DNA of 64,000 bases from Patescibacteria group bacterium (lineage in GTDB: Bacteria > Patescibacteriota > UBA1384 > 2-12-FULL-50-11): positions 384,771-448,770 of the forward strand of contig JBBUAP010000001.1 of assembly GCA_038058635.1 (NCBI GenBank). The letters run 5' to 3'. Of the stretch, positions 2,627-35,291 are shown piece after piece. Both the position numbers and the translations under genes were made by a program. The notes beneath the pieces were generated by a model. The model searched no databases. It was not told the origin of the DNA and saw nothing but the letters and a program-made list of their open reading frames with translations. Numbering within the stretch: the first letter of the stretch is position 1; each line of letters opens with the position of its first letter.

Positions 2627-3383
2627 CAGCGGTTAGCAAGTTTTCGAATAAAAAACTGACTGTTAGGGGGCCGATCGCCCCTTTGGTGGGGGTAATCTTT
2701 TTGACTAGGGGTTCGATAGTTTTAACATCAACATCCAGGCCAGAGCCATCAACCACAACCATTTCCTGATGGACCATTTCTGGAGCAACTAAACCACGAA
2801 CGCCGGTGGCGGAGATTAGTAGATCGTGCTGACGGATATTTTCGGCCTGGGACTTGGCCTGCTTGGCGATAACAGTCAAAGGCCAATTGTTGGCCGCGAA
2901 AACCTTTGCCAGCGGTCCGCCGACCAACTTGCCCATACCCAAAACTACGGTTTTCAAGTCTTTTATCGCAATCTGGTGATATGACAATAAAGCCATAATG
3001 CTACTGGGGGTTGGCGAGTCGTACGGCGAGTTGCCGCTTAAATTGTCGATGTCTTTGATGGGGTTCACTTTCTGGATTAATGCCTCGGTATCTAATGATT
3101 TTGGTAGGGGCAGTTGAAGAACAATGCCGTCAATGTCTTGGCGTCGGTTGAGGCCATCGAGCATCGATTCTAATTGTTGTTGGCTGGCGGTGGGGAAATG
3201 GTGCAAGAAAAAATGACAATCCAACTTTTTGGCCATCGCTTGTTTGGCCCGGATATAGGTGGCGGTCTGCTTGTCTTCCCCCACCCAAACTAAAGCTAAG
3301 CCAGGGGAAGTTGATAGTTTTTGACGACGAGCGACTAGCTCGACAAGCCGCTGACTAAGAAGCGCCTTGGCTATCAGTTGCAT
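2610..3383 (-). CDS. folD: bifunctional methylenetetrahydrofolate dehydrogenase/cyclohydrolase
   Basis: 257 aa with 'PGLALVWVGEDKQTATYIRAK' and 'IDGIVLQLPLP', a typical FolD layout. Confidence 0.9.
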   Translation of the reverse strand: MQLIAKALLSQRLVELVARRQKLSTSPGLALVWVGEDKQTATYIRAKQAMAKKLDCHFFLHHFPTASQQQLESMLDGLNRRQDIDGIVLQLPLPKSLDTEALIQKVNPIKDIDNLSGNSPYDSPTPSSIMALLSYHQIAIKDLKTVVLGMGKLVGGPLAKVFAANNWPLTVIAKQAKSQAENIRQHDLLISATGVRGLVAPEMVHQEMVVVDGSGLDVDVKTIEPLVKKITPTKGAIGPLTVSFLFENLLTAAIRKS

Positions 3384-3389
3384 TACGGG

Positions 3390-4046
3390 TTAGGGGGCGA
3401 CGGGCGTCGGCGTCGCTTTGGCCGCGTCGATGAGTTTCTGCCAAGTTTCGGCAGTTTGGACACCGGTGAACTTAACCTTATTGAGATAGAAGGTCGGCGT
3501 ACTATCGACTTTCAAGGCCAAGCCGTAATCACGGTCTGTTTCGACCGTCTTCTTTGTTTCTGAACTGGCGTAATCTTTTTCAAATTGGTCGATGTTCAAA
3601 TCAAGTTCTTTGGCGTAGTTGATATAGGTATTGAGCGGGTCGTCGAGGTCCTCCCAAGATTTTTGGTTAGCGTAAAGCAAATCGAGCATCGGCCAGAATT
3701 TACTCTGCTTCCCGGCCGCTTCAGCCGCCAGCGACCCATTCATCCCGTTTTGGTGATTGGGTAAGGGAAAGTGACGGAAAATAATTTGAACCGAATCGCC
3801 GTTATTGGCTTGAGCTTTCTCGAAATCAACGGCGGCCATCGCGCAAGCCGGGCACTGGAAATCACCAAATTCGACTATTTTAACGACTGCGCTATCCGGA
3901 CCGAGTTTATGGCCGACGGTTTCGTCGAGCTGATCGGCAGTGACAGTTGTTTTGGTTGAACTGTCACTGGAAAAAATGACGATGCCGCCAATTACTAAGA
4001 CGGCCGCCGCCACCACACCCAAGAAAAATTTTGAATCACCTGACAT
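3390..4046 (-). CDS. DsbA-family thiol:disulfide oxidoreductase (membrane-anchored thioredoxin fold)
   Basis: 218 aa with an N-terminal TM segment and a CxxC active site 'FQCPACA'. It lies directly downstream of a VKOR gene. Confidence 0.8.
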   Translation of the reverse strand: MSGDSKFFLGVVAAAVLVIGGIVIFSSDSSTKTTVTADQLDETVGHKLGPDSAVVKIVEFGDFQCPACAMAAVDFEKAQANNGDSVQIIFRHFPLPNHQNGMNGSLAAEAAGKQSKFWPMLDLLYANQKSWEDLDDPLNTYINYAKELDLNIDQFEKDYASSETKKTVETDRDYGLALKVDSTPTFYLNKVKFTGVQTAETWQKLIDAAKATPTPVAP

Positions 4047-11670: not shown

Positions 11671-12376
11671 TTCGGAAGTCTGTAAGCCGGGTTCTGTTTT
11701 AAACGATCATCTGTCTAAGCGTTGAGACCAATATTCAATTGCGAGACCGCAATGGAGCTCGTTGTTCCTTTTGGGAACTTCAAACTTAGATTAAATATCG
11801 GCCCACTCAACTTGCACCACGCTGGGTTTAGCTACTCGCCTTATTACTAAGGACGATTGTGCGCTCTTACCGCACTCTTTTCACCTTTGCCTGTTCCGAT
11901 TCAGTTAGGAAGGGGTGTCACACCTGAGCGCGACACCCATGGTCTATGGACTGCGGGATACTCCGCAGTCGAAGTGGCCGTACTCAGTACGGGCCACTAT
12001 AGAGAGACGATGATTGGTCTTCGACCAGAAGCAGATTCGCCCAATACACGGAGTTTGGACATTTCGATTTTCGCTTCCGACTCTTCTCCTAGTGTCCAAC
12101 CCCTTTCAACGTCCCTGGTAATGATGGTGACGATTTCGGATGCCTGGATTTCGTCGGTCGCTTCAAATCCAAACCGTGCGACGACTCCTCCACGCAGCCT
12201 CATGAAAAGCTCATAATTCATACCCATCTTCTTTCCTCCTAACTGAACCGGACATTGGCTGTTTTGTTTCTGTGCCACTTTCCCTTAGATTGCTCTAGCC
12301 TGCCGTTAGCAGGAGCGCGTCTCTATGGTGCCCGGACTTTCCTCACATGTTAATGCGCGATCGTTTCGACTTCGGG
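11671..12376 (-). ncRNA. rnpB: RNase P RNA, bacterial type A, with a giant P12 expansion
   Basis: Minus-strand motifs are GAGGAAAGTCCGGGC (12344-12330), CACAGAAACAAAACAGCC, AAAGGTGAAAAGAGTGCGGTAAGAGCGCAC (ending 11859) and ACAGAACCCGGCTTAC (11697-11682). P2 pairs AAACGATC (12366-12359) with GATCGTTT (11708-11701). P1 pairs GAAGTC with GACTTC. A promoter and a terminator flank the gene. Confidence 0.85.
11997..12227 (-). CDS. 76-codon ORF inside the rnpB P12 expansion (hypothetical; may not be translated)
   Basis: TAGGAGGAAAGAAG-ATG puts an SD 7 nt upstream of the start. The product is MGMNYELFMRLRGGVVARFGFEATDEIQASEIVTIITRDVERGWTLGEESEAKIEMSKLRVLGESASGRRPIIVSL. I recognise no domain, and the SD is base-paired in the P12 stem. 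Confidence 0.3.
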   Translation of the reverse strand: MGMNYELFMRLRGGVVARFGFEATDEIQASEIVTIITRDVERGWTLGEESEAKIEMSKLRVLGESASGRRPIIVSL

Positions 12377-30274: not shown

Positions 30275-31042
30275 CTACTTCAGGGCTTTGCGGAAGGAGA
30301 GCATGGTGAAGGTAACGAAGACTACAAACATCCCACCGGCGGCCAGGAAGGCATAACCGATGTCTGGGCTACCCCAGCCATCTAAGACCAGCGCCCTAAT
30401 ACCTTCAATGATATGAGTGACGGGGTTGTAGTCGGTGATGGTGGCGAATGTTGACGGCAGTAACTCGCGCGGAGTTTGGGAAGTGGTTAGATATAAGAGC
30501 GGGAAGACAAGAATGAATAGCGATTGAACCAGCCGGGCATTTTGGGTTCGCAGAGCGCTAATCATACCGATACAACTCCAGGCCATCGCAAAAATGATCA
30601 GAATCGCAAATATTGCTAAGACCCCCAGGAAGCCGGACTGAATCCTCACCCCCCAAAGCAAAAGTAGGGTTAACATGATGATTCCTTGGCCCAATGATTG
30701 GACGGCGATTTCTGCTAATTTAGCTAAGACTATCGCCAAACGGTTAATTGGCATTATGATCAATTTTTTGAAATAACCACTCTGAATATCTTGAACCAAC
30801 TCAATGCCGGCATTACCAGCCGAAAAGAAAATCGCGGTAAATATTGCCACCGGCGCGATGAAATCTTTGTACGATACATCTGGGAAACCCGGGACTTGAG
30901 CGAGAGCAGAAAGCGATAGCGAGTTAACAGCAAAGAAGAAAATTGGCATAAAGAACGGTGGCAGTAACGCCAAAAGAGGCCGCCATATTAATTTGATGTT
31001 GCGGATTGAAAGGTAATACCAGTCACTGAAAAATGTATTCAT
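30275..31042 (-). CDS. ABC-2 type exporter permease
   Basis: 255 aa with 6 TM segments, translationally coupled (4-nt overlap) to the upstream ATPase. Confidence 0.8.
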   Translation of the reverse strand: MNTFFSDWYYLSIRNIKLIWRPLLALLPPFFMPIFFFAVNSLSLSALAQVPGFPDVSYKDFIAPVAIFTAIFFSAGNAGIELVQDIQSGYFKKLIIMPINRLAIVLAKLAEIAVQSLGQGIIMLTLLLLWGVRIQSGFLGVLAIFAILIIFAMAWSCIGMISALRTQNARLVQSLFILVFPLLYLTTSQTPRELLPSTFATITDYNPVTHIIEGIRALVLDGWGSPDIGYAFLAAGGMFVVFVTFTMLSFRKALK

Positions 31043-31839
31043 GATCGTGCTCTCGTAAATGGGTCGGGAGCATTGGCGTTGACTTCTTCGTCGCCCAAAT
31101 TGCTACCAGTGGTTTTCAAGAAAACTTCTTCCATATTCTTGGCGTTATGTTTCTTCATCAACTCGGCCGGTGACCCCTCGGTGACGATCTTGCCCTTGTC
31201 CATAATCTCTATTCGGTCACAGAGTTCTTGGGCTTCGTCCATGAAGTGAGTGGTAAGGAAAATCGTCATCCCCTCTTTATTTAATTGACGCAAATGGGCC
31301 CAAATTAGCTGACGAGCGTGCGGGTCGAGACCTTGAGTTGGTTCGTCTAAGAAAAGAATTTTTGGTTTATGGATTAGCGAGAGAGCTAGGTCAAAGCGGC
31401 GACGCATACCGCCGGAGTAAGTGGAAGTAAATTTGTCGGCGACTTTTTCTAGCTCAACCAATTTCAGGAGTTTGGCAATCTGGGCGTCAATCTCTGATGG
31501 GGGCATATGATAAAGTCGGCCATGGAGCTGCATCATTTCGCGGGCGGTGGCCACTTCGTCTAAACCAACCTCCTGCATCGCGAAACCAACTCGCTTGTAG
31601 ATTTCGTCCAAGTTTTCTTCGAGTTTCAGGCCATCGATAACAACCGAACCAGAAGTTTTCTTGACTAAATTGACTAGCATATTGATGGTAGTCGTTTTAC
31701 CAGCGCCGTTCGGGCCTAAGAAACCGTAGAATTCGCCATCTTTGACGTTAAACGAAATTCCCCGGACGGCTTCGGTGCTACCAGGGTAGGTTTTGGTTAA
31801 GTTTTTGACCTCGATGATGTCAGAACTTTTTGCGCCCAT
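31039..31839 (-). CDS. ABC transporter ATP-binding protein (DrrA/ABC-2 type)
   Basis: Walker A 'GPNGAGKTT', signature 'YSGGMRRR' and Walker B 'ILFLDEPT'. Confidence 0.9.
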   Translation of the reverse strand: MGAKSSDIIEVKNLTKTYPGSTEAVRGISFNVKDGEFYGFLGPNGAGKTTTINMLVNLVKKTSGSVVIDGLKLEENLDEIYKRVGFAMQEVGLDEVATAREMMQLHGRLYHMPPSEIDAQIAKLLKLVELEKVADKFTSTYSGGMRRRFDLALSLIHKPKILFLDEPTQGLDPHARQLIWAHLRQLNKEGMTIFLTTHFMDEAQELCDRIEIMDKGKIVTEGSPAELMKKHNAKNMEEVFLKTTGSNLGDEEVNANAPDPFTRARS

Positions 31840-32096
31840 GTTTTAACAGTCTAGCGATGACCGCATGTAATGTAAAGGCCGCCGGCCACCTGTTTTTTGC
31901 TTGTTTTTCTAAAGAAATTAGTCCAAACATATCCTTTGGTCGTAGGTTATGCCAATGACCACCAACATAGTAGGGGTGTAGGTTGTGGTCATGATGATGT
32001 TTTGGATAGTCGGCATAGGGTCGGTTGGGTACCAGAGACACATCGGTGCGCATCCTACTTAAAGAGGCACCGGTTAAATTTAGTTCCACCTCAACT

Positions 32097-32136
32097 CTAG
32101 CAAAGCACCCCGGAGATGTTCCGGGGTCTTTGCTAG
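32097..32136 (-). terminator. long hairpin downstream of the HIT gene (putative terminator, weak T-tract)
   Basis: CTAGCAAAGCACCCCGGA-GATGT-TCCGGGGTCTTTGCTAG, a 17-bp stem. Confidence 0.45.
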
Positions 32137-32137
32137 T

Positions 32138-32593
32138 TTAAAGGTTACCTTTGATTTTCTTAATAATCGCCGCAGCAACATCACCGCTAACTCCCAGGCT
32201 TGTGCTTCGAGCATAGTGATGGCCGAATTCATTATCTGTAAAAACTTGACTTCCAACTTCTACTACTTTGTCGTAACGCGGTCGGACATGCCAATGAATG
32301 TGTGGATTGTAGGGCTTGGTCTGGAAAGCGTTGTTTGTCAGGCAACTCCAGTTGAAGACGATAGCTCCAAAGACAGAACGAACGGCCGTTTCATATTTTG
32401 AAATTACTTCCTGCAAATCCAACCATTCGGTGCTAGTTAATTCGGCCAAATCTCCAGTATGGCGCTTGACGGTTACGAATGATCGCCCGAGATAGTATTG
32501 ATCGCTACGGTCGAGTGAAACTCGCCAAAATTTGGTTTCGAAAATTACATCCTGATCAATTGTTAGAACCTCACAAACTTCACATTTTTTCAT
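32138..32593 (-). CDS. HIT (histidine triad) family hydrolase
   Basis: 151 aa with the triad 'NPHIHWHVRPRY'. Confidence 0.85.
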   Translation of the reverse strand: MKKCEVCEVLTIDQDVIFETKFWRVSLDRSDQYYLGRSFVTVKRHTGDLAELTSTEWLDLQEVISKYETAVRSVFGAIVFNWSCLTNNAFQTKPYNPHIHWHVRPRYDKVVEVGSQVFTDNEFGHHYARSTSLGVSGDVAAAIIKKIKGNL

Positions 32594-32739
32594 TGAGTAT
32601 ATTTACGACTGCGCTCGAGCCTACTTTACCAAAAACTCCCAAACTAAGGAAGCCGCCCCGCCTTCGCCTCAATTCATCGAGAATCTTGCATTATGATTAA
32701 TACACCTGTCATCTAGTTGACTTTTATAAGCATTTTGCT

Positions 32740-34476
32740 ATGATAGCAGGGTATTTGAGTAATGGGTTAGGCAAAAATAATATGGCAACAATTAAACTAG
32801 CTGAAATAGCGAGAAAACTTGGAAAGTCTGCAACAGACATCTCCAGAGATACTGGTATCAATCGCAACACTATCAATGCCCTTATGAAAGGGTCTGTTGA
32901 AGATGTTAAGTTTTCGACACTAGAAAAGATTTGTAAAATTTACAATATTCAAATTTCAGACATATTAGACGATGTCGATGTTTTGAATAAACATCAGGCA
33001 AAATCAAAACAAAAAAATGTTCGCAAGTTATATAAGCAGGAAGGAGAGATAGTTCCCTTTACCTGCTGGCCTTGGGCACTCGTTGCGGGTTCATTTACCT
33101 TAAAGCGAGATGAGGAAATAATAGATTTTGGCCAGCTAGATTTGTATTTTAAAGGGGATTACGGCATTGGCTACTGGGACCTTAATTCTCTTAAAAACGT
33201 AGCAAGCACTTTTTACGCATTTTACTCTGATAAGGATAAGTACTCTAAATTGTACGGTAAATATTTATATTACTCCGCCGAGATTGAGGACATATACCTT
33301 GAATCACACGAAATCGTTTCTAGGGAGCTGGATGATGTACAGATTAGATCAATTTTTGAAAAATTAAAGTCCGCTTATAAGGGGTTCTGGGACTACAGTT
33401 TGTTTATTGACGCTTTTGATACGGGTGTTGATCAAGAAAGAATTAATCAAATTGCAAAAGAGAAAAACTTGGATAAAAAATCGGTGGAGGTTCTTACCAT
33501 GCCGGTGGAAATGACTTTTGCTGACGAAAGAAAATACGCGTTTTTGTCTCTTATCGAAGATGCTTCAATAAGTACTAAAGATGCTGAAAAGTTTTTGGGA
33601 AAAAATAAAGATGCCATAGAACAATATCGGAAAAAGTTCGATTACTACAAGTCAAATTACACTCACATCAAGCATATAACTTTAGAAGAGATGAAAGACG
33701 AAGCTAACAAATATCTTGAGGATAAATCAGTTTTCAAAGAAGAATTCAAAAAGCTTGAGCAATACGAAAAAGACAAACATAGAGAGATCGACAAAGTACT
33801 CAAAAAACTACAGCTAAAAGAAAATCCGTTGTGGTTCTTTAGTAATTTGACTTACTGGAGAGAGCATCGAAAGAAAGTAAACTTAATGGGCATTCATGCC
33901 TTAGATTTCATTCTGTCTGCAATAGAAGACAAGACGGGCATACAAAAAAAATATTTACGTTATTTAAGTTTCGACGAGGTTGATAATGTTATCAAGGGAT
34001 TAATCCCAAGCTCCACATTGGAAAATCGATATAATGAAGGTGTTTTGATTACTATTCTCGGTAATTCATATAAAATATACGAGGGGGCAGAGGCGAACTC
34101 CATTAAAAAAGATTTAGAGAATATATTGTCGGGAGAAACGAATAAGACAAAGGTTATCACCGGCCAAACTGCTTCTCAAGGATATGCTAAGGGCATAGCG
34201 CGCATCATTCTTACCCAAGAAGATTTTTCTCGTTTTAAAGATGGCGAAGTCTTGGTTACGAGCATGACAAGACCAGAATTCGTGCCACTGATGAAAAAAT
34301 CGGCAGCCATTGTCACTAATGAGGGGGGAATTACTTGTCATGCCGCTATTGTTTCAAGAGAATTGGGAAAGCCGTGTATTATTGGAACAAAAGATGCAAC
34401 TCAGATGATAAAAGATGGCGATATGGTAGAGGTTCGAGCTAATCACGGTACAGTAAGAATATTAGAAACCAAATAA
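32740..34476 (+). CDS. HTH-XRE domain fused to a PEP-utilizing-enzyme mobile (swivel phosphohistidine) domain; central ~370 aa unassigned
   Basis: The N-terminus 'IKLAEIARKLGKSATDISRDTGINRNTINALMKG...STLEKICKIYNIQISDIL' is a Cro/C1-type HTH. The C-terminus 'GQTASQGYAKG...VLVTSMTRPEFVPLMKKSAAIVTNEGGITCHAAIVSRELGKPCIIGT' is a PEP-utilizer swivel with catalytic His. The gene is AT-rich. An alternative start is ATG at 32782. Confidence 0.75.
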   Translation: MIAGYLSNGLGKNNMATIKLAEIARKLGKSATDISRDTGINRNTINALMKGSVEDVKFSTLEKICKIYNIQISDILDDVDVLNKHQAKSKQKNVRKLYKQEGEIVPFTCWPWALVAGSFTLKRDEEIIDFGQLDLYFKGDYGIGYWDLNSLKNVASTFYAFYSDKDKYSKLYGKYLYYSAEIEDIYLESHEIVSRELDDVQIRSIFEKLKSAYKGFWDYSLFIDAFDTGVDQERINQIAKEKNLDKKSVEVLTMPVEMTFADERKYAFLSLIEDASISTKDAEKFLGKNKDAIEQYRKKFDYYKSNYTHIKHITLEEMKDEANKYLEDKSVFKEEFKKLEQYEKDKHREIDKVLKKLQLKENPLWFFSNLTYWREHRKKVNLMGIHALDFILSAIEDKTGIQKKYLRYLSFDEVDNVIKGLIPSSTLENRYNEGVLITILGNSYKIYEGAEANSIKKDLENILSGETNKTKVITGQTASQGYAKGIARIILTQEDFSRFKDGEVLVTSMTRPEFVPLMKKSAAIVTNEGGITCHAAIVSRELGKPCIIGTKDATQMIKDGDMVEVRANHGTVRILETK

Positions 34477-34602
34477 ATATGGAAAATCCAGAAATATTTT
34501 CGTAACCAGGCACTCTAAAAGCCTAATGGCGACGACCTGGAATGCAAGTAGTATCTCGGTGTCTCTGAACAGGGCATAGAATTAGCCAGGGAACGCACAG
34601 AA

Positions 34603-34895
34603 GGAATTGCTTTCTCTGTTCACCCGGTAACACAAGATAAAAACCAACTCATCATTGAGGCAGGATTTGGACTCGAAGAAGCCATAGTTTCGGGACAAAT
34701 TACGCTGGACAGCTGTTCGTAGAAAAACAACTGCGATGGATCATTGACATCAATATCAACGAGCAAGAAAGAGTTTTATATAGAAAAGAAAATGGTGGTA
34801 AAGAATGGATAAATTTTGGAGAAAAAGGCCAACAACAGGTATTAGATGAAACACAGATCTTAGAACTTTCGGAAATTGTCCTCGTATCGAAAAGT
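34603..34895 (+). pseudogene. frameshifted, truncated remnant of a PPDK_N (PEP synthase/rifampin-phosphotransferase-type ATP-grasp) domain gene
   Basis: Frame a reads 'GIAFSVHPVTQDKNQLIIEAGFGLEEAIVSGQITLDSCS*' (compare the PpsA consensus GVMFT.dPvtG....vIea.wGLGEavVsG.vtPD). The +1 frame continues 'FVEKQLRWIIDININEQERVLYRKENGGKEWINFGEKGQQQVLDETQILELSEIVL' and runs into the tRNA 3' half. There is no start codon or N-terminal part. Confidence 0.55.
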
Positions 34896-34906
34896 CTAGT
34901 TCTTGA

Positions 34907-35188
34907 GCGGGTGAAGGGAATCGAACCCTCGTCTCAACCTTGCCCGTCCTCCGCAGTAGCAGACACAGAGCGGGATACGAGAATCGAACTCGCGTATCTT
35001 GCTTGGGAAGCAAGCGCTCTACCATTGAGCTAATCCCGCGCTGCAACTGCTACGGAGGGCGGGGGAAGGTTATTCGATTGTGGCTACGATGAAAGCCATA
35101 ATCGAACAATCACCCTCGATCAAATCCCGTCGGCTTGCCGAGGGGTGCCGAGGGGTGATTGATATTCTGCCATTGAACCACACCCGCA
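34907..35188 (-). tRNA. interrupted tRNA-Gly-like gene: 5' half 35188-35158, 217-nt intervening sequence, 3' half 34940-34907
   Basis: The 5' half is GCGGGTG TG GTTC AATGGCA GAAT A TCAATC. The 3' half is GGTTGA GAC GAGGG TTCGATT CCCTT CACCCGC T. The acceptor stem pairs 7/7, the anticodon stem 6/6 (one G:U), and the D and T arms are canonical. G1:C72, C2:G71, G3:C70 and U73 match the nested tRNA-Gly. The anticodon cannot be read with certainty. Confidence 0.5.
34970..35040 (-). tRNA. tRNA-Gly(CCC), nested inside the interrupted tRNA
   Basis: 71 nt: GCGGGAT TA GCTC AATGGTA GAGC G CTTGC TTCCCAA GCAAG ATAC GCGAG TTCGATT CTCGT ATCCCGC T. Confidence 0.9.
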
Positions 35189-35214
35189 ATTTGTAACCCT
35201 GTTACCTTACATGA

Positions 35215-35224
35215 TTGTACCAGG
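35215..35224 (-). promoter_or_regulatory. extended -10 promoter (TGgTACAAT) upstream of the split-tRNA/tRNA-Gly unit
   Basis: The minus strand reads cTGgTACAAT, about 27 nt upstream of the 5' half's G1. The same TGgTAnAAT motif occurs upstream of uvrA (52590-52599) and the desulfurase (43173-43181). Confidence 0.45.
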
Positions 35225-35291
35225 CGGGTAAACTCACGGTGTAGTAGCGCGCTTTCTCTTACCTTCATTTTGCGTTACGCTGAAAGTAATC

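Follow-up and report, generated by a model that had tools for sequence, protein, structure and literature searches.

How does a complete tRNA gene come to lie inside another tRNA gene, and which of the two still works? The question is raised by a locus on the minus strand of a 64-kb stretch of patescibacterial DNA (contig JBBUAP010000001.1; the whole stretch is referred to below as the window, and all coordinates are given in its numbering), where a glycine tRNA gene sits between the pieces of a second tRNA gene. An initial annotation of the sequence had left three alternatives, namely an unconventional intron that hosts a tRNA, a split tRNA whose halves are liberated when the inner tRNA is excised, and a tRNA gene inactivated by an insertion that itself carried the replacement. 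The window, which matches an ENA groundwater metagenome contig, was compared with homologous or related contigs fetched for the purpose (numbered below with the prefix L); homologues of the 2-hydroxyacid dehydrogenase encoded beside the locus are annotated as Patescibacteria, Berkelbacteria or Saccharimonadales metagenome-assembled genomes (MAGs). The nested gene most likely shows a tRNA gene that has been replaced in place, and not a new kind of intron.

The inner gene is a tRNA-Gly(CCC) at 35039-34969, complete and canonical as originally described, one base away from the position first given to it (35040-34970) and with no encoded CCA. It scores 72.5 bits against the Rfam tRNA family RF00005 (E 6e-14; gathering score 29), is called by ARAGORN as tRNA-Gly(ccc) at 34968-35039, and is the sole tRNA that either program calls in the flagged stretch. 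The identity elements of glycine tRNAs are U73, the pairs G1:C72, C2:G71 and G3:C70, and the anticodon bases C35 and C36, and the inner tRNA has all of them (GCGGGAT...CCC...ATCCCGC-T). Two relatives, L003 and L004, have the identical 71-nt tRNA and no other complete tRNA-Gly at the locus, and this tRNA is presumed to be the working gene. BLAST searches of phage and plasmid records returned matches to the inner tRNA only, at 77-83%.

Removal of two segments (35161-35072 and 35062-34942) from the outer gene leaves a sequence identical at 71/71 positions to the uninterrupted tRNA-Gly(CCC) of relatives. This uninterrupted sequence, GCGGGTGTGGTTCAATGGCAGAATATAACCTTCCCAAGGTTGAGACGAGGGTTCGATTCCCTTCACCCGCT, is present in six loci (L002, L014, L015, L070, L067 and L072, with L015 and L070 representing one Berkelbacteria organism seen twice), and in each it is syntenic, lying between an ABC transporter gene and the 2-hydroxyacid dehydrogenase gene in the order ABC transporter (-), tRNA-Gly (-), 2-hydroxyacid dehydrogenase (+). 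The relatives therefore do contain the intact tRNA-Gly that was to be looked for, with the anticodon CCC rather than UCC or GCC, and the outer gene, which had been likened to tRNA-Gly(UCC), is by its sequence the tRNA-Gly(CCC) that the clade itself conserves, and shares its anticodon with the inner tRNA. In L085 and L086 the acceptor stem of the outer-type tRNA is altered on both strands with pairing kept (GCGAGTG/CACTCGC), which shows that in relatives the outer type is a genuine tRNA that continues to evolve.

The outer gene is broken into three pieces. Its 5' part (35162-35187, GCGGGTGTGGTTCAATGGCAGAATAT; formerly begun at 35188) consists of the 5' acceptor strand, the D arm, position 26 and T27, matches L002, L014, L015, L067 and L072 at 26/26 positions, and is identical in the nested alleles of L008, L068 and L069. 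Positions 28-36 follow at 35063-35071 as nine exon bases, AACCTTCCC, that sit between the two insertions and agree exactly with the intact gene; they supply the 5' strand of the anticodon stem, U32, U33 and the anticodon CCC. L008 and L068 read AACCTTCCT in place of this sequence, a change that falls on C36 or on the first base of the insert depending on where the boundary is placed. The 3' part (34906-34941, AAGGTTGAGACGAGGGTTCGATTCCCTTCACCCGCT), running from A37 to U73, is identical to the intact gene and lies in a 100% alignment with L002 3253-3295. What had been taken for a single 217-nt spacer is accordingly two insertions, of 90 and 121 nt. The complementarity reported between the two halves holds for the acceptor strands, which pair 7/7, and fails for the proposed anticodon stem TCAATC/GGTTGA (6/6), which is coincidental because TCAATC is the foot of a hairpin in the first insertion (hairpin A) and the true strand, together with the anticodon, is AACCTTCCC.

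As it stands, the outer gene has its anticodon loop split by 121 nt after C35 or C36 and its anticodon stem separated from the D arm by 90 nt. It is called neither by ARAGORN, with or without intron mode, nor by Rfam; in intron mode ARAGORN called only the inner tRNA, both in the native sequence and after deletion of insertion 1. Because the anticodon loop is broken, the outer gene in its present form cannot yield a decoding tRNA. The split-tRNA alternative would likewise yield halves that lack an anticodon loop.

Insertion 1 (35072-35161, 90 nt) lies at the junction of the D stem and the anticodon stem, is absent from the intact orthologues, and has a boundary that is ambiguous by the dinucleotide AT (25/26 to 27/28). 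It is a double hairpin, composed of hairpin A (35161-35107), which carries the tandem 10-mer CACCCCTCGG x2, and hairpin B (35106-35073); these appear as inverted repeats I3 and I6, with the 10-mer as direct repeat D5, and bear out the two strong hairpins and the tandem 10-mer of the first description. Both hairpins are kept in L008 and L068, and one copy of the 10-mer is missing from L068. Alignments of insertion 1 to the outer and inner tRNAs on both strands were no better than those of shuffled sequences (P ~0.1-0.35), and its derivation from a decayed tRNA copy was rejected.

Insertion 2 (34942-35062), also absent from the intact orthologues, is a 121-nt cassette placed in the anticodon loop at 35/36 or 36/37 in which the inner tRNA is bordered by 23 nt on its 5' side (35062-35040) and 27 nt on its 3' side (34968-34942). 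These two flanks form imperfect inverted repeats (I2, 17 nt at 82%; I1, 26 nt at 77%), by which the outer anticodon stem is prolonged as a long, irregularly paired helix, which also includes I5 and confirms the long helix first seen around the inner tRNA. The leader/trailer duplex has a predicted energy of -36.9 kcal/mol, compared with -7 to -20 kcal/mol for the other five tRNAs of the window, whose weaker duplexes rule out such a stem as a general trait of the tRNAs of this genome. For the 296-nt stretch the predicted folding energy is -134.8 kcal/mol (z = -8.2 relative to shuffled sequences), and its minimum free energy (MFE) structure holds both cloverleaves. Neither insertion has deleted or duplicated target bases, beyond the 2-nt ambiguity of insertion 1. 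No second copy of either insert was found in the 64-kb window (blastn-short) or in the fetched loci, a search that covered ~6-12% of a typical genome of the group, and the motif CCGCCNTCCG, with or without its partner, occurs in the window at chance level only.

The nested allele is present in four independent assemblies: the window, L008 (a Logan assembly, SRR22388308, in which the neighboring protein is 93% identical), L068 (ERZ1292632) and L069 (ERZ1292629), the last two from groundwater wells of the Hainich. The L008, L068 and L069 contigs end inside the region, such that the cassette 3' flank and the outer 3' part are represented by the window alone; L069 holds the first 46 nt of the allele only, and comparisons of three alleles refer to the window, L008 and L068, which have three distinct sequences. 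Other relatives show different states of the locus. In L003 and L004 the identical inner tRNA is preceded by a remnant of the outer 5' part (GCGGGTGTGGTTC, a 31-nt GC hairpin, then GCAGAATA) and the outer 3' half is absent; with the inner gene in place, the outer one can thus be dispensed with. A 5' remnant of this kind, followed by a different tRNA-Gly(CCC), is found in L007. In L006, L009, L012, L084, L088 and L090 other tRNA-Gly(CCC) alleles are followed by one or two remnants that extend from the T loop to the 3' end, and in L015 the intact gene is followed by two copies of GATTCCCTTCACCCGCTCAA. The presence of other alleles beside remnants of the old gene shows that replacement with leftovers is recurrent. 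Of the three alternatives considered at the outset, disruption of the gene by an insertion that carried a replacement is thus the one that the intact orthologues, together with the inner tRNA of L003 and L004 standing without the 3' half, uphold. The states form a stepwise series at one locus (the intact gene, the nested form, a 5' remnant with the new tRNA, and the new tRNA with a 3' remnant) and illustrate a route by which reduced genomes can exchange an essential tRNA gene present in single copy while its function never lapses.

On balance, we think it probable that the ancestral gene was split by insertions, with the tRNA-carrying inner insert supplying the working tRNA; the same assessment, as part of this whole account, applies to the identification of the outer pieces with the ancestral single-copy tRNA-Gly(CCC) gene of the lineage. 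In this scheme two DNA insertions, the 90-nt double hairpin and the 121-nt cassette with its different tRNA-Gly(CCC), would have divided the older gene. The inner tRNA would have no promoter of its own and would be transcribed from the putative promoter of the old gene, TTTACC-N17-TAAGGT (35232-35204), as part of a ~290-nt precursor that runs through the outer 5' piece and insertion 1. RNase P, the RNA gene for which is present in the window, and a 3' nuclease would release it, and CCA would then be added, because none is encoded. The outer pieces would be merely a highly structured leader and trailer, and the helix formed by the cassette flanks and the anticodon stem would make a plausible RNase III substrate, a step that the scheme does not require. 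The nested form would then be one state of a locus at which tRNA-Gly(CCC) alleles are repeatedly replaced and old fragments are left behind.

Disruption of a tRNA gene with repair by the incoming DNA is well known; there, a matching fragment is supplied, whereas here the insert in the anticodon loop brings an entire different tRNA of the same specificity and the old gene becomes a perfect but broken shell. The literature phrase searches that we made found no report of a tRNA gene nested in the anticodon loop of another. The locus also carries a warning for annotation, as standard tools report the inner tRNA only and miss the broken gene.

Several observations weigh against this account of replacement. 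Both insertions are exact, which is not expected from random breakage and repair, and neither a recombinase, nor a transposase, nor a second copy of an insert was found. Among the three nested alleles, 0/34 outer-exon columns are variable, compared with 10/100 columns in the inserts and 10/46 upstream; the probability of 0/34 is ~0.02 if the exons evolved at the rate of the inserts. The inserts differ between strains by 4-10%, compared with 33-45% at the fourfold-degenerate sites of the neighboring gene (pairwise differences in insertion 1 are 4/90, 8/80 and 6/80 in the three comparisons). A dead gene that was vertically inherited should show more decay, and either recent movement of the nested allele between strains or some constraint on it would account for this. 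In insertion 1 the window is closest to L008, and in hairpin B and the cassette flank L008 resembles L068; in a tree of the neighboring gene the nested strains are not separated from L002, which has the intact gene. Exactness and conservation are accounted for most simply by recent horizontal movement through recombination at a hot spot, and purifying selection on the composite is a possible alternative.

The idea that the cassette is mobile concerns its origin and is compatible with replacement as the account of present function. Here the 121-nt tRNA unit, perhaps with the 90-nt hairpin as well, is or was a site-specific mobile element that integrates precisely in the anticodon loop of the tRNA to be replaced, renders the host dependent on it, and has spread by recombination between strains. 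We regard this as unlikely, with a chance large enough to deserve attention. It would explain the exact insertion without target duplication, and the cassette has the 17-26-nt imperfect inverted-repeat ends that, on head-to-tail joining, would make a palindromic site, and the target, AACCTT-CCC-AAGGTT, is palindromic as well. Strains that are 33-45% apart at fourfold sites share the allele with inserts only 4-10% apart, and the similarity of the inserts does not track that of the neighboring gene. The site itself has the features of an insertion hot spot, with an AT-rich islet 6 nt downstream, arrays of tRNA 3' fragments and a hypervariable adjacent gene, and a phage-like contig, L071, has a tRNA-Gly(CCC) that shares its first 28 nt with the outer gene. 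Set against these points are the lack of a recombinase or transposase gene in the islet or nearby, the lack of a second insert copy in the window or any fetched locus, and the length, 121 bp being very short for an element excised as a circle. Viral contigs, phage records and plasmid records were also scanned and gave nothing relevant, and a phage origin of the inserts was rejected; the four viral-contig scans returned chance 16-mers, one unrelated tRNA-Gly(UCC) and a single attP-like 3' half of a tRNA-Gly(UCC). Finally, the likeness of the cassette arms to the GC hairpin in the D loop of L003 and L007 is not significant (P ~0.07-0.11), and a common origin of the two was dropped as evidence.

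Two kinds of known element offer comparisons with such a cassette. Rickettsia palindromic elements, Correia and ERIC elements and other miniature inverted-repeat transposable elements (MITEs) are multi-copy and usually duplicate their target site. The inserts at this locus resemble them as 90-120-nt hairpin or inverted-repeat sequences inside a structural gene, with terminal inverted repeats in the cassette (I1/I2) and hairpins in insertion 1 (I3/I6), and differ in that neither multiple copies, in the window or the fetched loci, nor target duplication was found here, the duplication amounting to 0-2 nt. Islands integrated in tRNA genes regenerate the gene that they split and leave a duplicated fragment (PMC4383910, PMC9897764). 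In common with these islands and prophages (Islander), the present locus has a tRNA gene as target, pieces of the old gene flanking the insert, an insert that maintains tRNA function and an islet 6 nt downstream, and classic direct repeats of the segment from T loop to 3' end occur in the remnant arrays of L015, L088 and L090. The locus departs from them in that a whole different tRNA is supplied instead of a matching 3' part; no tRNA segment is duplicated and no island-type direct repeat surrounds either insertion, the insert is 121 nt long with inverted-repeat ends and no integrase, and a second insertion lies 9 nt upstream.

A selfish cassette that broke the host copy while supplying its own would be impossible to lose and would move between related Patescibacteria. 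More generally, either a mobile cassette or processing at the RNA level would, if true, add a new element class to a phylum in which unexplained insertions in structural RNA genes are already known. That the locus holds such a novelty, whether a selfish element with precise integration in the anticodon loop of the same tRNA species that it carries or a selected, intron-like RNA that hosts a tRNA, strikes us as unlikely.

Selection on the composite RNA would give the frame itself a function: the tRNA-shaped outer pieces might help the inner pre-tRNA to fold, to remain stable or to be processed by RNase P or RNase III, or, in a variant of the idea, a two-piece tRNA-like RNA left after excision of the inner tRNA might have a use of its own. 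The retention of both cloverleaves in the MFE structure (z = -8.2) and the invariance of the outer exons (0/34 columns, against ~10% in the inserts) are what such selection would produce, as is the presence of hairpins A and B throughout the three alleles, although these differ by substitutions and a 10-nt indel; a C-to-A change in L068 hits a bulged base, and the 5' remnant GCGGGTGTGGTTC...GCAGAA is nearly unchanged in L003 and L007. Yet L003, L004 and L007 have a tRNA at the same site without the outer 3' half, which shows that the frame is not needed, and among the nested alleles no compensatory pair is evident in the helices, where a few changes disrupt pairing, in a comparison of few alleles with the 3' strand taken from the window alone. 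We judge a function for the frame improbable. A parallel of artificial origin is offered by engineered scaffolds, for which a chosen RNA is built into a tRNA at its anticodon stem (for example PMC3753655). There, as here, a cargo is carried on an extended anticodon stem with the acceptor, D and T arms intact, in a shape that cells process or tolerate. The scaffolds are man-made, whereas the cargo here is a tRNA that RNase P could excise, and any benefit of the frame is putative.

In a true intron arrangement, both insertions would be removed from the RNA and the outer tRNA ligated, such that one transcript would give two tRNA-Gly(CCC) molecules through a new type of intron; this appears very improbable. 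The exons are exact, matching the intact gene at 71/71 positions after removal of the insertions. Group I introns of Patescibacteria interrupt tRNAs at position 35/36, follow a 5' exon that ends in U, possess cores of full length and occur in Asn, Asp, Tyr, Met, Phe and Thr tRNAs (PMC13011429). Insertion 2 admits a placement at the same bond, 35/36, which is the site of self-splicing introns within Asn and Asp tRNAs (PMC13011429), and under that placement its last base is G, as in those introns; phylum, loop and exactness of insertion are also shared. Divergent members of the group that RF00028 misses have been reported (PMC13011429), and the RNase P RNA gene of the window, with an insertion of ~340 nt, indicates that structural RNA genes here tolerate inserts. 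The features that separate the locus from these introns are more numerous. A permissive Rfam scan of 701 nt found no group I or group II intron or other ribozyme or Rfam family at E<=10, in agreement with the failure of the initial annotation to find group I core elements; for the group I core (P3-P8 and the G-binding site) this means no RF00028 match, a search that divergent Patescibacteria introns can escape (PMC13011429). Apart from the tRNA, insertion 2 has only 50 nt, into which a group I core would not fit. Its 5' exon would end in C (C35 or C36) and not in U, the affected tRNA is a glycine tRNA, and none of the known introns carries a tRNA. Whichever of its three possible placements is chosen, insertion 1 has U or A as its last base, and no helix joins its ends in the fold. 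With respect to group II introns, there is no Rfam match to domain V/VI, and the inserts are 90 and 121 nt long, whereas such introns measure several hundred nucleotides at least. The spliced product would duplicate the anticodon of the inner tRNA, and the 3' exon has been lost in relatives.

Archaea provide examples of tRNA genes with multiple introns, of split tRNAs, and of a box C/D RNA within a tRNA-Trp intron, all processed at a bulge-helix-bulge motif that is cut by the splicing endonuclease. The present gene is similar in having more than one interruption, non-canonical positions, a small RNA inside and a helix joining the ends of an insert. It is unlike them in belonging to a bacterium with a class A RNase P RNA and in having no bulge-helix-bulge (a pair of 3-nt bulges set apart by a 4-bp helix where exon meets intron) in its fold; around insertion 2 the MFE structure runs from an internal loop (2x1) through 4 bp, a mismatch (1x1) and 6 bp to a 3-nt bulge. 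The absence of a ribozyme core, the existence of two insertions, the 5' exon that ends in C and the redundant anticodon together speak against an unconventional intron of the kind first suggested; the exactness and conservation of the insertions keep a weak form of the idea alive.

An assembly chimera, in which tRNA-Gly alleles of co-occurring strains were stitched together, might be suspected from the graph complexity implied by the L008, L068 and L069 contigs, all of which break inside the region, but it is extremely improbable, given that the junctions of the 5' part with insertion 1, of insertion 1 with AACCTTCC, of AACCTTCC with the cassette and of the cassette with the inner tRNA recur independently in different samples and assemblers with substitutions of their own, and that an identical neighboring gene is found on seven contigs, including a 495-kb MAG contig.

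Replacement in place, as we favor it, would put the inner tRNA under control of the sequences upstream of the old gene. A promoter-like element, TTTACC (35232-35227), N17, TAAGGT (35209-35204), on the minus strand (35204-35232), is conserved across relatives: TTTAC(C/G)-N17-TAAAGT precedes the tRNA by the same distance in L002, L006, L009, L014 and L015, and an equivalent precedes every allele type. A consensus promoter scan made no call at the locus, and a promoter function for the element is inferred from its sequence conservation. The extended -10 sequence TGGTACAAT that had first been proposed is indeed present (35222-35214), within the 17-nt spacer, in some haplotypes only, and it is TTTACC-N17-TAA(A/G)GT that is conserved instead. 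Directly upstream of the tRNA 5' end lies a palindrome, GTAACAGGGTTAC (35193-35205, minus strand), also conserved across relatives. The same position is occupied by GTAGC-NNN-GCTAC in L009, L012, L014, L068 and L069 and by GTAG-N5-CTAC in L002, L007 and L015, and the change from A:T to G:C between GTAAC...GTTAC and GTAGC...GCTAC is compensatory; the palindrome could be a leader hairpin or a protein-binding site. It overlaps the end of the -10-like hexamer.

On the other side of the locus lies an AT-rich islet of 2.76 kb (32136-34899, 33-42% GC), delimited by the breakpoints of the L002 alignment: L002 2002-3252 corresponds to window 30883-32135, and L002 3253-3295 to window 34900-34942. The islet had been said to end exactly at the 3' half; it does adjoin the tRNA, its near edge lying 6 nt beyond the 3' end of the outer tRNA, and both junctions carry ACTAG. 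Its genes encode a HIT-like protein (32138-32593, -) and a 578-aa protein with a helix-turn-helix (HTH) domain and a PEP-utilizer 'swivelling domain' (32740-34476, +). Pfam found no recombinase or integrase gene in the islet, and the inserts themselves are non-coding. Other relatives have other genes at the insertion point. Homologues of the islet proteins were followed in search of a second nested 3' side, and led to a different locus (P0122/L083) and to a different allele (P0240/L090). The nearest homologue of the 578-aa protein (83%) is in a different gene cluster (L083).

Most relatives have, between the tRNA and the dehydrogenase gene, a (+)-strand gene of ~160 aa with no Pfam match (L002 3428-3916, L006 3422-3928, L007 1055-1531, L008 243-716 and L009 2184-2672). 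Its products are 24-28% identical between strains in which the flanking genes are 84-95% identical, and the gene is missing from the window and L003.

Direct-repeat arrays of the tRNA-Gly segment from T loop to 3' end, for example GATTCCCTTCACCCGCTCAA x3, follow the complete tRNA at L015 1677-1867 (= L070 8832-9022), L088 ~600-880, L090 1-100, L009 1953-1972 and L084 downstream of 1349. Each repeat is preceded by a GGGAACTGAGCGAAGCGAA-like motif, and L088 has remnants of two different tRNA-Gly alleles; these arrays look like footprints of repeated site-specific integration. A tRNA-Gly(CCC) allele at L007 836-907 and L090 1-54 has the T loop TCCGATT in place of TTCGATT, with C at the normally invariant position 55; ARAGORN calls the L007 copy, and L090 has the 3' part only.

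The L071 contig (Ga0265292_1000080), at 2663-3545 (-), has a compact array of tRNA-Gly(GCC), tRNA-Gly(CCC), tRNA-Gly(UCC) and tRNA-Lys genes interleaved with small open reading frames. It is phage-like, its tRNA-Gly(CCC) being the one that shares its first 28 nt with the outer tRNA, and it may derive from a phage or other mobile element of the same host group. L082 (IMGVR_UViG_3300021090_000002) has at ~224-290 the lone tRNA-Gly(UCC) 3' half mentioned above, which runs from the anticodon loop to the 3' end, has the T arm and acceptor strand of the outer tRNA, and looks like a phage attachment site.

Two further RNA genes of the window were inspected. The tRNA-Asp (79 nt), considered as a possible oddity, is an ordinary tRNA with an encoded CCA. 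The class A RNase P RNA gene (11671-12373, -) is 703 nt long against a model of 367 positions; the ~340 nt inserted in its P12 loop match no recognized Rfam family and open with AGGAGG, resembling a ribosome-binding site, followed by ATG.

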